Source: Octopus vulgaris (lineage: Eukaryota). From it: a stretch of 64,000 nucleotides of DNA. The translations under genes and the position numbers were made by a program. Under the pieces are notes generated by a model. It did no database searches and had not been told where the DNA came from. It was given only the letters and a program-made list of their open reading frames with translations. The stretch's first letter is position 1. Every line of letters starts with the position of its first letter. Shown here one piece after another: positions 28,644-49,685 of the stretch. The stretch lies in NCBI GenBank assembly GCA_951406725.2, contig OX597823.1, positions 93,248,001-93,312,000 on the forward strand. Reading direction: 5' to 3'.

Positions 28644-29013
28644 ATATCAAGGGTACATAAATACAGATATATATATATGCACAGCAAACGATATACTTAC
28701 ATATACGAGCGTCGTACATACATACATATGCACGTATGGACACAGCCAGTTTGAGTCACCCGCCAAATCACCGCATAAGTACGATATGGTTAAAATAAGC
28801 ACCGCAGTGAATATAATAACGAATTATATAAATTTATATATGAGGATAATATCGATATTTAAGTGTCGAAATTATCAAGTGGCCAGCATGATTTGGCGGG
28901 TGACTCAAACTGGCTGTGTCCATACGTGCATATGTATGTATGTACGACGCTCGTATATGTAAGTATATCGTTTGCTGTGCATATATATATCTGTATTTAT
29001 GTACCCTTGATAT

Positions 29014-29073
29014 ATTCAATTGATGACGGTAAAGCTTATCTAAAGCAGAACCAGAAATCCTTGGATCTTGAAT
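29014..29073 (+). ncRNA. Type I hammerhead (TTGATGA core variant)
   Basis: ATTCAA-TTGATGA-cGGT..GCTT..AAGC..ACCa-GAAA-TCC TT GGA-TC-TTGAAT; AUC cleavage triplet. Confidence 0.75.
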
Positions 29074-30707
29074 TATTCAATAATTTTTGCTTGTATGTTT
29101 TGTCCCTCCGCTTTACCTCATGGTGCGATATGAACATTTAACGTGGTACTATAGCCAGTGTTTCGACTGCTATTTCGGCATGTTGGTGTCTTTTAGACAC
29201 CCTCATTTTTATATTATATATATATATATATATATATATATATATATATATATATATATATATATATATATATATATATATATATATATATATATATATA
29301 TATATATATATATATATATATATATATATATATATAGACAGATAGATAGATAGATAGATAGATAGATAGATAGATAGATAGATAGATAGATAGATAGATA
29401 GATAGATATAGATATATACAGGCAAACATGGAGTATGATTAGGTCCGTACCCTTCCTAGATAGCAATTTGAGTAACTAAACACATTCATGCTTAAACAAA
29501 CAATTGAAATATTATATTCTAAATATTGAAATAAGCTGAGGTCTTGAAGCATAAACCGATATGTCATTGAAAGAATCCTGTTATTTATGTAAATTATTGA
29601 TCCTGGTAATTGGGCACAAATTCAAAGATGTTCTGGTTTCGTTGATACAGAGTCAATATAAATTGCTCCAATACATGTGAATTATATATTTTATGAAAAT
29701 ATTGAACAAGCTTTGAATCATATTTCCCAATATCGATTTAATCATATATATTATATGTAAATATTTATTACACATGCGGAAAATGATATCTACTTTTGCT
29801 ATATACCTACACAACTTTAAGATACATGTGCAGTCAATAGACTAGATATTATCAAGTGCTTATTTCGTTAAACGTTGATGCATGAAACGAACGAATTTCA
29901 ATTGGGAACGTGAAGGATGTAGAAAATGGCTGAAATATATCTTTTTCAGATACATTCATTCGTATTTTCTTTCTTGCTTTTTATTTAAACATTTTAATCG
30001 ATCGTAGTGTTTTAAACTTCTTCTTCACTTTCTTTTTCTTTTTTTTTTTTGTAGCTGCTCTATTCTTCTTCGAAATTGAATGAATTTTATATCGCTTCAG
30101 ACAGGACGATGGAGTGCCATGGAGAAAAAAAAATGAACGACGAATTTCTCTGAGAACCCAATAGAAGAGTGATTGTTGCCATCCTGCTTGTTGACACAGA
30201 AATCACCGGACCAATGCAAAACACTCTACTGCATCATGCTACACGGCATTACGCTCTCTCTCGTACAATGCTTGTTATCAGAACATTGTAACGAAATAAT
30301 GACTACAGCACTGTTCTTCCTATTGTACCACATCTTTGCAGCAGAAAACTGTGTAGAAATGTTCTAATATAGTACAGTATATTACCAGCTTACACAATAA
30401 AATGCAATTTACAGCTATTTTACAATACGATCCCTTGTATGGTAATACATAGCGCAGCATTTTCTAAACTACATAGCACTCTATTGCGAAACACTATACT
30501 TCCAGACAATATATTATTGTACTGCAGTGGATTTCCTACAGTTTATTAAATGCTGTTATTTTGCACTAGACAGCACTGAATCTTAAGCTGTATGGACTGC
30601 CTGGTACGGTGTTAAAGAACATTGCGCACGACACAGCGCTGTTAAACACAAGGGATCCTAATGCTGATCACGCTATGTTACATTAAAGGTTTCCATTCTA
30701 AAAAAGG

Positions 30708-31024
30708 AGCACTCCGTCGGTTACAACGACGATGGTCCCAGCTGATACGATCAACGGAACAGCCTGCTCATGAAATTAACGTACAAGTGGCTGAACACTC
30801 CACAGACACGTACACCCTTAACGTAGTTCTGAGGGAGATTCAGCGTGACACAGACTGTGACAAGGCTGGCCCTTTGAAATGCAGGTACAACTCATTTTTG
30901 CCAGCTGAGTGAACTGGAGCAACGTAAAATAAAGTGTCTTGCTCAAGGACACAGCACATCGCTGGCAATTGAACTCACGACCTTACAATTATGAGTCGAA
31001 TGCCCTAACCACTAAGCCACGCGC
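30708..31024 (-). mobile_element. tRNA-derived SINE
   Basis: Minus head TGGCTTAGTGG (A box)...GAGTTCAATT (B box). 3' body shared with 39388-39718, 62280-62840, 63396-63739 and 34320-34430. Confidence 0.8.
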
Positions 31025-31380
31025 ATTTACAAAGGTTTCCATTACACAGTGATGTATTATATTACGCGACAAATACGCCACTGCAGGACAAGGCACTCAA
31101 CTTGTTCTCTACTTCGCTACACAGCATAAAAGAATATATAAGCATCCTTTTATTTTCTGCCTGTCAACACATCAGATCTTGTGTTGAACTACATACATTT
31201 ACATCGAGGATTTCAAATTCTTTCAAATGCAATTTGTCTTTCATTCTTTAGGACTTCGTAAAATTGTTGCAAGATAATAGAGTTGATTTGAATTACTGAA
31301 TACCGAAGTCTATTGTCTCCTGTCAATCTAGACATCTAGACACTAATGTTTGCATTGATTGAATATAATACAGGTACAAT

Positions 31381-31745
31381 CATGGCTCTGTAATAAGAAG
31401 CTTGTTTCTCAATTATAAGGCGTGGCACCTTAGGCAACTGTTTTTCTACTATAGCCTCGAGCCGACTAAAGCCTTATGAATGGACTTCATAGACGGAAAC
31501 TGAAAGAAGCCTCTTGTATATGTCTGTGTGTGTATGTGTGTTTGCCCTCCACTGCCGTTTGAAAGTCGGTGGTCATGTGTTTGTGCCCCCTTTATCTAGC
31601 GGTTCGGCAAAACAGACTCATAGAACAAGTACCAGGCTTTAAAAAAAGCATAAGCATTTGAGTCGATTTGTTCGACTAAAACGTCTTTAAGGCGGTGCCC
31701 CAGCATGGCCAGTCTCCAATGGCTGAAACGCGTAAATAGTAAGAG
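31381..31745 (+). mobile_element. SINE (family of 54680-55075 and 37800-37950)
   Basis: Shared gtggcaccttaggcaactg..ctatagcc..gacggaaactgaaagaagcc and cagcatggcc..ctgaaac tail. Confidence 0.7.
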
Positions 31746-33087
31746 ACAAAAGATATTGTGACAGGATATAAATCGTAAAACTATGGGACTGAATGCAATG
31801 TATTCAGCACGAAGTCTCACCACGTTTTCTTCTCAGCTGAAATCGTTGTCCACGCTACATTCCATACGCCAAGCTCGTCCAAGGGGCAATACCGAGCACA
31901 AACTGACATATAATTATTGTTTGCTAAAAGAAACCATCAATGAAGGAAGATTTACGTCATTCCGTGGCAATAAAAACGCACATTAGCATCAGCCAAACAA
32001 TAATTAAATTTTCATGATTCGTTTAAAAAAACATAACTGCAGCATTGATAAAATTTCCCCCTTGTTTAGTAATCTTTTGAGTTCATAAAATAACATGTAA
32101 TGATAGGTTTTATGTGTACACCAATGACTAATTATCTTACTTTTATCACACGATACCTTTTAAGAAATATATGCTTCATCTCACCAAATATATGCTTCAT
32201 CTCATGCGGTCAAGGCCTGCCCAATTTGTTTTTGTTGATTTTCCAGTTTTTCATACGTGCCAGAGCCAGCTATTATGCATCATACTAACTGATTTTCGAA
32301 TTTTTTTCTGCTGTTCGTATGGGGATTATGCTACGTACCTTGTAAATATTGTTGATGTCTTATCTTCGTATCTGTATTTTGGTACAATTTCAAGCAGAAC
32401 CGTAATTATTTTGCTGTATAATAAAACACAGGTCTGATAATGACATACGGCCTGTCGTACAATGTTGTTAACGTTCTCGTATGTCCTCTATTAGCTGCAA
32501 TTCAGATCGCTATTGAAGCGCTGTCAACATACGTCTCCGTTTAGTTTTTGACATTTTGCTTTAGCAAGACAATTTCACAAGAGAAATAGAGGAATGAATA
32601 AAACCGATGACATCCATGAACAAGAACTAAATATTCAGATAAAAGGAAAATGTGATCAAGCAAATGACTTGTGATGTGACGATTATGTTACAACATAGGA
32701 AACGATTTCATATCTATCTACCTGTCAAATTGTCTGTCCATCTATCTATCTATCTATCTATCTATCTATCTATCTATCTATCTATCTATCTATCTATCTA
32801 TCTATCTATCTATCTATCTATCTATCTATCTATTTATCTATCTATCTAATCTATCTATCTATGTATCTGTCTATCTATCTGTCTATCTATCTATCTGTCT
32901 ATCTGTCTGTCTGTCTATCTATCTACGTCTCTATCTATCTGTTTCTCTCTTTCTCTTTTCCCTCTCTCACTATCTATCTGTATATCCCTCTCTCTCTCAC
33001 TCTCTCTCACGCTCTCTCTCTCTCTCTCTCTCTCTATATATATATATATATATATATATATATATATATGCAAAGGACCAGCTGAAG

Positions 33088-48136: not shown

Positions 48137-48218
48137 TTTTGGGACAATTGTTTCGCTATTAATGAATTAAATGTAATTTTACTTACAAAAAAATCCATTT
48201 GTAGCTCGTCAGCCAAAA
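48137..48218 (-). ncRNA. Type I hammerhead, unit 3
   Basis: As unit 1; A run one base shorter. Confidence 0.9.
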
Positions 48219-48671
48219 CTATCTGGATGAAATCCACTCAATCACACGCCAGATTTTACCATAACGATAAATACGCGTGTGGTTCAATTGATTACATCCG
48301 ACGTTATAATTCAAATGCCCCAACTAACAGCGCGCCAAACTTTCACGGAAAACAAATACAGCATTTAGAAATAAATGCAGCATAATTATAATTAATTAAT
48401 AAGGGTGAGAGAATTAGATACTAATTTAATAGTATATCTATTCAACACCAAGTGGCCTAGTGCTACGAGAAACCTTGATTATTATAATATTTTATAACAT
48501 ATTATAATATTTTTACAAAATAAATATAAGAGAGTGGTCACTATATGGCTCACTCTAGCACCAGTTAATCCAAAAGGTTTCAACCACGAAAATACATGTT
48601 TCCCATGAAAGTCAGTACGATTGTTAGCTCACACGGACAGGGCAAATAAAAAATAACAAAAATACAGATTA

Positions 48672-48754
48672 TTTTGGGACAATTGTTTCGCTATTAATGA
48701 ATTAAATGTAATTTTACTTACAAAAAAAATCCATTTGTAGCTCGTCAGCCAAAA
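48672..48754 (-). ncRNA. Type I hammerhead, unit 4
   Basis: As unit 1. Confidence 0.9.
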
Positions 48755-49207
48755 CTATCTGGATGAAATCCACTCAATCACACGCCAGATTTTACCATAA
48801 CGATAAATACGCGTGTGGTTCAATTGATTACATCCGACGTTATAATTCAAATGCCCCAACTAACAGCGCGCCAAACTTTCACGGAAAACAAATACAGCAT
48901 TTAGAAATAAATGCAGCATAATTATAATTAATTAATAAGGGTGAGAGAATTAGATACTAATTTAATAGTATATCTATTCAACACCAAGTGGCCTAGTGCT
49001 ACGAGAAACCTGGATTATTATAATATTTTATAACATATTATAATATTTTTACAAAATAAATATAAGAGAGTGGTCACTATATGGCTCACTCTAGCACCAG
49101 TTAATCCAAAAGGTTTCAACGATGAAAATACATGTTTCCCATGAAAGTCAGTACGATTGTTAGCTCACACGGACAGGGCAAATAAAAAATAACAAAAATA
49201 CAGATTA

Positions 49208-49290
49208 TTTTGGGACAATTGTTTCGCTATTAATGAATTAAATGTAATTTTACTTACAAAAAAAATCCATTTGTAGCTCGTCAGCCAAAA
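49208..49290 (-). ncRNA. Type I hammerhead, unit 5
   Basis: As unit 1. Confidence 0.9.
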
Positions 49291-49592
49291 CTATCTGGAT
49301 GAAATCCACTCAATCACACGCCAGATTTTACCATAACGATAAATACGCGTGTGGTTCAATTGATTACATCCGACGTTATAATTCAAATGCCCCAACTAAC
49401 AGCGCGCCAAACTTTCACGGAAAACAAATACAGCATTTAGAAATAAATGCAGCATAATTATAATTAATTAATAAGGGTGAGAGAATTAGATACTAATTTA
49501 ATAGTATATCTATTCAACACCAAGTGGCCTAGTGCTACGAGAAACCTGGATTATTATAATATTTTATAACATATTATAATATTTTTACAAAA

Positions 49593-49685
49593 TTATAATC
49601 CAGGTTTCTCGTAGCACTAGGCCACTTGGTGTTGAATAGATATACTATTAAATTAGTATCTAATTCTCTCATCCTTAATTAATTA
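49593..49685 (+). repeat. Inverted ~90-bp terminal fragment of the 536-bp unit, fused to (TA)n
   Basis: Reverse complement of ~49461-49555 with one substitution and a 3-bp deletion. Confidence 0.9.

Follow-up and report, generated by a model that had tools for sequence, protein, structure and literature searches.

The window analysed here is a 64,000-nucleotide (nt) stretch of the AT-rich, 2.8-Gb genome of Octopus vulgaris (GenBank assembly GCA_951406725.2, contig OX597823.1, forward-strand positions 93,248,001 to 93,312,000). It contains insertions of three families of short non-coding repeats with hammerhead ribozyme motifs, as well as an autonomous Penelope-like element (PLE). The repeats end at two fixed sites, A and B, within a predicted RNA domain that likely lets a Penelope-type enzyme take hold of them and copy them. 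Their units are 483, 559 (described earlier as 560) and 536 nt long. The 483-nt family (clade alpha; clades are defined below) forms a two-armed insertion in (TA)n at 28342-29211, in which the main arm, on the minus strand, runs to site B (about 28345) and an inverted plus arm runs to site A (29211); a stub of about 22 nt at 23953-23974 (plus) also ends at site A within a TA array. The two-armed insertion of the 559-nt family (clade gamma; 40201-41356) has a plus arm reaching B at 41356 and a minus arm reaching A at 40201. The 536-nt family (clade beta) is present as a five-unit tandem array on the minus strand (46907-49690), which ends at site A (about 46907-46911) and bears a short inverted plus arm (49594-49690) ending at site B.

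Type I hammerhead motifs lie on the same strand as the terminal module described below in all three families. They are predicted at 28590-28643 (minus; UUGAUGA core at minus 28637, near-palindromic stem III) and at about 29014-29073 (plus; UUGAUGA core at plus 29020) in the 483-nt family, and found at 41026-41069 (plus; palindromic stem III) and minus 40438-40395 in the 559-nt family; in the 536-nt array, the motif recurs on the minus strand at 49284-49214, 48748-48678, 48212-48143 and 47141-47071, the copy near 47676, in one of the five units, having an altered stem I. All three families are young dispersed repeats, often in tandem, with copies on many contigs; there are 1002, 1273 and 1564 candidate regions, the best 40 of which were scored for each family, and the best copies are 97-99% identical. 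The units occur as tandems or partial tandems, have no long terminal repeats (LTRs), do not encode protein and show no homology to PLE coding sequence, the frames of at least 100 amino acids (aa) over them being low-complexity stop-to-stop frames. On these sequence features, the three families qualify as non-LTR retrozymes. In blastn, the unit bodies align neither with one another nor with the PLE of the window. Rfam yielded no match at the gathering score, only repeat-driven microRNA-type matches below it, and a Pfam search gave nothing useful.

A preliminary description of this DNA had drawn attention to a module, CACTT-hairpin-CTYA-spacer-TATAATT, shared by the three families and fused to (TA)n, and had proposed it as a cis-element for recognition by reverse transcriptase (RT). 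A regular-expression scan of the whole window for CACTT-hairpin-CTYA-spacer-TATAATT/TATATAT recovered every copy that had been described: minus 28881-28822 and 28398-28341 in the 483-nt family, plus 41305-41363 and minus 40716-40657 in the 559-nt family, and minus 47383, 47919, 48454, 48990 and 49526 and plus 49623 in the 536-nt family. The same expression has no further match in the window. The terminal copies do fuse with (TA)n at 28345, 41356 and 49685, the last belonging to the 536-nt module at 49623-49685 (plus, site B). Two copies are internal: that at 28822-28881 (minus; CACTT-P3-CTCA-N12-TATAATT, where P3 is the hairpin) is severed from the upstream domain by the inversion point, and that at 40657-40716 (minus) ends in TATAATT. 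A fourth, decayed copy (CTACT-GGT..CC-CTCA-N13-TATA), fused to (TA)n at 56278-56398 (plus), was detected with a covariance model (E 3.6e-4; all covariance-model E-values given here are rough). The concern that such matches might be common by chance was not borne out. Genome matches to CACTTG..CTYA..(TA)6 numbered 7015, against 786 for the reversed pattern, and two further pattern searches gave 3582 matches against 0 and 8692 against 284 (the last excluding CACTT); overlapping matches were counted repeatedly in these figures, and loci were drawn from the matches listed (the first 100 on contig 1 each). P3 outperformed dinucleotide shuffles at p<=0.05 in 15/15 representatives. The earlier observation that pairing is maintained despite sequence change is also supported.

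Thirty loci per family were fetched, and mapping of these 90 loci onto their units revealed two fixed 3' ends. Site B is the TATA of the module; site A is located upstream of it, by 101, 101 and 130 nt in the three families, and, like B, just behind a hairpin and a CTYA-like motif. Junctions with (TA)n had been expected at the module, and this holds for 48 of 84 distinct ends, but 35 others lie at A; a single end lies elsewhere, and the other AT-rich stretches of the units are not used as ends. Among 38 distinct two-armed insertions, 35 combine A with B, none combines A with A or B with B, and three have one irregular end; 14 insertions are single-armed, and 21 loci running off the fetched DNA were left out of this tally. 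The A+B insertions thus have the Penelope-type footprint, with an inverted 5'-truncated arm and the tail at one end only, and almost every mapped 3' end enters (TA)n, a microsatellite target. Of 16 cases found in further clades, 13 have the end of the opposite arm behind the upstream hairpin (P2), the other three being TA-repeat artefacts; the spacing to B in these clades carries no weight as evidence, the search patterns having fixed it in advance. The same two-end rule applies to the autonomous element of the window, which belongs to the Hydra clade of PLEs (21/21 two-armed insertions, ends 67 nt apart, two right ends having been taken from segment coordinates near the locus edge), and to a young family of the Neptune type (15/15 two-armed insertions, among 18). 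These observations support two proposals of the preliminary description, namely mobilisation of the PLE type into TA arrays and the presence of a conserved cis-element where the insertions end. The Penelope 'tail' is described, in the accessible parts of the literature, as the two-end footprint of PLE insertions (PMC8557442), and both of its ends serve as RT start sites in vitro (PMC11167929), so that, of the two likely start sites, the module marks the longer one.

Priming by TATA microhomology, as first suggested, fits site B but not site A. At B, 28/48 ends share at least 4 nt with the TA array (background: 0.4-2% of unit positions); this overlap reflects a single template sequence per family, and the other ends at this site come 2-7 nt earlier. 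The overlap at A is 1 nt or less in 29/35 ends. Both sites can be read as TT followed by ATAT. TATA pairing may, then, set the register at B, and is no general requirement; this agrees with the non-homologous start that the accessible text describes for a PLE of Anolis (PMC11167929).

The module is just the 3' third of a larger predicted domain. Folding of each family gave one common plan, in which hairpin P2, a CTYA-like motif and site A are enclosed by a long-range helix, P1, that stops right before CACTT, with hairpin P3, CTYA and site B following 3' of P1. P1 and a further predicted helix, P0, close a multiloop containing P2 and site A, and the whole domain would measure about 190 nt. In the 483-nt family it is predicted at 28345-28514 (minus), with the 5' strand of P0 (GTGG) at 28514-28511, that of P1 at 28481-28475, P2 at 28472-28456 and site A at about 28443; the 3' strand of P1 and CCAC follow at about 28407-28396, and then P3, CTCA and site B. 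In the 559-nt family (41212-41356, plus), the predicted 5' strand of P1 occupies about 41212-41222, P2 41223-41248 and site A about 41260, while the 3' strand of P1 extends to 41304 and is followed by CACTT at 41305, P3, CTCA and site B. One full predicted domain of the 536-nt family lies at 47313-47524 (minus), with repeats at 48060, 48595 and 49131 and a partial copy at 49633. CACTT is not a free sequence motif, as had been supposed: it varies (CCACT, CCGCT, CACCT, CTACT). In most cases, its core forms the 3' strand of predicted helix P0, covarying with the partner strand about 115 nt upstream. P0 reads GTGG/CCAC in seven representatives and GCGG/CCGC in 5/5 delta copies.

Domain loci, with thousands of matches in the genome, sort into six clades, labelled alpha to zeta in the present analysis, which have tandem units and hammerheads wherever checked. 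Among 24 hand-picked representatives, P1 did better than shuffled sequences (<=1/30) in 18 and P0 in 11; decayed or deleted copies are among the misses, and in the gamma clade P1 is lengthened instead. Compensatory changes, in which both members of a pair differ, number eight in beta (0/500 shuffles), five in alpha (5-15 of 500 shuffles) and five in delta (4-63 of 500 shuffles; structure from RNAalifold). Pairs were counted within clades because MAFFT misaligns P1 between clades. A cross-pairing matrix showed only mild specificity of the P1 strands (-10.7 kcal/mol for self, -8.8 within and -7.6 between clades); with single-strand shuffles of P1, p<0.05 was reached in 7/15. The three families had been called unrelated, and their bodies do not align, yet the covariance model of one clade finds others: the beta model finds the 483-nt family (E 1e-4), the 559-nt family (0.035) and delta and epsilon (about 1e-6 to 8e-4), and the alpha model finds the 559-nt family (4e-5), delta (1e-7) and epsilon (5e-5). 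A GCTRYT-like motif before P1 and the order of the parts are also common to the families, which suggests that they are probably deep relatives by common descent rather than three unrelated inventions.

The autonomous element of the window (1-6151) has a 717-aa frame (minus 3938-1785) with RWK, DKT and CxCx5C motifs plus a GIY-YIG domain at its C terminus, a unit of 2590 nt (below 3 kb), a (TA)n target and a pseudo-LTR (pLTR) at 5795-6151 (plus). By its motifs, it is a Hydra-clade PLE as that clade is characterized in the accessible text of Craig et al. (2021; PMC8557442). By eye, its protein resembles Hydra-1_Obim, and the pLTR hammerhead near 5995-6060 (element 1423-6151) appears to have a CCGAAGA core. 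The preliminary description had not seen the module in this pLTR, and covariance-model scans agree; the element lacks the domain. An endonuclease search of the genome yielded 20,904 candidates, from which five young autonomous families (four Hydra-type and one Neptune) were examined; each inserts in (TA)n and has two ends. The Hydra-type families that coexist in this genome number at least four young ones (loci L301-L340 and L421-L440), with frames of 717 to about 955 aa and 3' untranslated regions (UTRs) of up to 2.5 kb. The tails of the four Hydra-type families examined measure 67, 69, 169 and about 150 nt, and so exceed the 30-40 nt given in the accessible literature. The young Neptune family (L151-L170; 1312-aa frame, ends 47-59 nt apart) was retrieved with a decayed Neptune-type RT and endonuclease remnant in the window (26500-27700, minus) as the query. 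Both this family and Hydra families 1-4 were considered as carriers of the module and rejected, as the module is absent from them.

The Hydra clade is mildly favoured as the source of the helper enzyme. Its families prefer (TA)n; palindromic stem III occurs in five of seven retrozyme and both Hydra hammerheads detected, and none was detected in Neptune (three Hydra motifs and the one 536-nt copy tested escaped the scan); two of its families have a hairpin followed by CTCA or CCTA before the long end; and in Hydra family 3 the long end (CATGGTG-hairpin-CCTATCTC) is similar to the alpha-clade site A. Hairpin-to-end distance was rejected as a test of the helper clade, because 14-21% of random positions also have a helix ending 8-17 nt before them. 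A sense fusion between a piece of Hydra coding sequence and a beta retrozyme (L355, L421) was likewise rejected as a template switch naming the helper: the fusion is secondary, since the paralogues L422 and L423 share its 5' flank and carry a Hydra copy with its own 3' end. The segment concerned, duplicated at least four times on contig 1 (L355, L401, L421, L422, L423), holds one Hydra copy; in two of these paralogues, a delta stub was gained in the TA array and the 3' half of the Hydra copy was lost at the beta retrozyme. This fusion apart, tblastn detected no coding sequence linked to the module in the loci screened.

Taken together, these results make it reasonably probable that the non-coding hammerhead repeats end at two sites of a shared domain that docks the RT/endonuclease of a PLE, probably of the Hydra clade, with copying starting about 9-16 nt behind each hairpin. 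RT recognition of the module is suggested by its position. The helper protein, possibly a dimer, would cut both strands of a TA array, bind the domain, and prime at A from one side of the break and at B from the other, each start lying about 9-16 nt behind a hairpin base. The two complementary DNAs (cDNAs) would then join at variable 5' break points, generating mirror-image insertions; at B, the register could be defined by a short T/A pairing, with 1 nt or less needed at A, and long tandem arms could derive from a multimeric or a circular template, the data fitting either. The Anolis PLE protein, in the accessible account, is a predicted dimer and has been shown to cut and extend both strands (PMC11167929). 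More tentatively, and as a possibility that we doubt, cephalopod retrozymes might be one old superfamily with its own enzyme-recruiting RNA, in which twin hairpin-spacer start sites are gripped by a dimeric Penelope RT priming both sides of the break, the handle being SINE-like (short interspersed element) and not a copy of the helper's end.

Several observations weigh against docking of a PLE enzyme on this domain. P1 is unsupported in 6/24 representatives and P0 in 13/24. The covariation sets comprise 6-7 related sequences per clade and the structures were derived from the same alignments, such that only beta stands clearly above control, alpha and delta being marginal. The full domain was not found in the four Hydra families and the Neptune family by sequence and covariance-model searches, and no sequence or structure shared with the retrozymes was found at their pLTRs; covariance models placed no match with E<0.03 on a pLTR end and gave one weak match at L431 (E 0.039), sampling being incomplete. 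Recognition by likeness to the helper's own RNA is thus unsupported, the A/B rule, being common to Neptune and Hydra, does not name the helper, and the 14-21% background makes hairpin geometry weak when taken alone.

That no autonomous carrier was found among these families also bears on the idea that the domain was inherited as the tail of an autonomous PLE family, unsampled or extinct, with the retrozymes as pLTR derivatives and the structure as its RT start region. Li et al. (2026; 10.64898/2026.07.22.740005) link Xenopus retrozymes to pLTRs, as far as the accessible text goes, the long end of Hydra family 3 does resemble the alpha-clade site A, and just five families out of the 20,904 endonuclease candidates were examined; yet the domain is so common that the matches listed might be expected to include an active carrier, and the loci screened by tblastn had no coding sequence linked to the module, the sole fusion being secondary. 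We regard such an inheritance as unlikely. The domain might, instead, serve another RNA step (transcription, circle ligation, stability or hammerhead silencing), the start sites being located there only because AT-rich linkers are single-stranded. Sites A and B are indeed AT-rich unpaired stretches, autonomous elements display two ends without the domain, and Cervera and de la Peña state, in the accessible text, that the hammerhead of the circle must be blocked by an unknown mechanism (PMC7229834). Against this explanation, both ends hold a similar distance to a hairpin base and CTYA-like motif across clades, and 83/84 ends lie at A or B although the units have other AT-rich stretches; it seems quite improbable. 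Finally, the hairpins could be by-products of fold-back template switching in AT-rich DNA, with neutral common descent accounting for the family likeness: P3 of the 559-nt family is a near-perfect AT palindrome, P3 length varies from 26 to 47 nt among representatives, and the elements often invert. This account is largely refuted, and very improbable, given that P0 and P1, both long-range helices, extend over 80-130 nt and have double changes in their two strands, in units that are otherwise unalignable.

Other repeats surround the insertions. Remnants resembling the tail of Hydra family 3 lie at 23300-23960 and 27730-28100, ending behind a GGGTT..AACCC hairpin at TA arrays; those at 23307-23777 form an inverted pair. 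An inverted pLTR stub at 46735-46832, adjoining the 536-nt array, is related to the Hydra element of the window (84% over 75 nt). Further type I hammerhead motifs with a long stem II are present at minus 24649-24589 and minus 41486-41409, the TA array shared with the 559-nt insertion being about 50 nt away from the latter. By eye, a stretch of the 3' UTR of Hydra family 2 (L208:5400-5520, minus) resembles part of the 483-nt unit in antisense, with an antisense hammerhead half-core beyond; it is possibly a captured retrozyme piece, and the likeness was not found by blastn with low-complexity masking. Frames at 16674-17426 (plus) resemble what we take to be a Tc1/mariner transposase remnant.

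For the recognition and copying of animal retrozymes, published accounts propose PLEs, in their accessible parts, without a cis-signal. With its covariation, its two mapped ends and its many natural variants, the domain bears on how PLE enzymes choose two start sites and how mirror-image insertions are built; it provides ready templates and mutants for the existing in vitro PLE assay, and predicts where cDNAs should start. If cephalopod retrozymes are a superfamily with a handle of its own, no cis-signal for mobilisation in trans by PLEs would have been defined before this domain, which would also offer a transferable tag with which any RNA could be written into (TA)n.

Structured handles that recruit an RT or set the limits of copying have precedents: the 3' ends of SINEs mimic those of their LINE (long interspersed element) partners, and telomerase RNA has a template-boundary hairpin. 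For the retrozymes, no partner with a matching end was found and there are two start sites rather than one. The families described here resemble metazoan non-LTR retrozymes, which are short, dispersed, non-coding tandem repeats with one type I hammerhead per unit and for which PLEs have been proposed as the mobilising partner, in the accessible text, on the basis of co-occurrence, shared hammerheads and pLTR similarity (PMC7229834; 10.64898/2026.07.22.740005). Those accounts describe, in their accessible parts, none of the fixed insertion ends, (TA)n targeting and shared structured cis-element seen here. Such an end domain was not found in the literature searched (subscription papers and preprint supplements being outside its scope), and the module was not seen in the available excerpts of the supplement of Craig et al. 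(2021; PMC8557442). Hydra-clade PLEs, such as Hydra-1_Obim, share (TA)n insertion and canonical hammerheads with the retrozymes (PMC8557442, in part); in the four Hydra-type families studied here, the two ends are 67-170 nt apart, some behind a hairpin, and 0/4 have the P0-P1-P2-P3 domain. By comparison with the tail of endonuclease-positive PLEs, given as 30-40 nt in the accessible sources (PMC11167929; PMC8557442), the distance here is 101-130 nt, in a non-coding passenger and within a covarying multi-helix domain common to several families. The start region of the Anolis element, an AC-rich stem-loop inside the open reading frame according to the accessible text (PMC11167929), is also unlike the retrozyme domain. 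Retrozymes, PLE tails and (TA)n targeting were thus already known; what appears to be new is a shared structured domain at both ends, a well-supported candidate cis-element.

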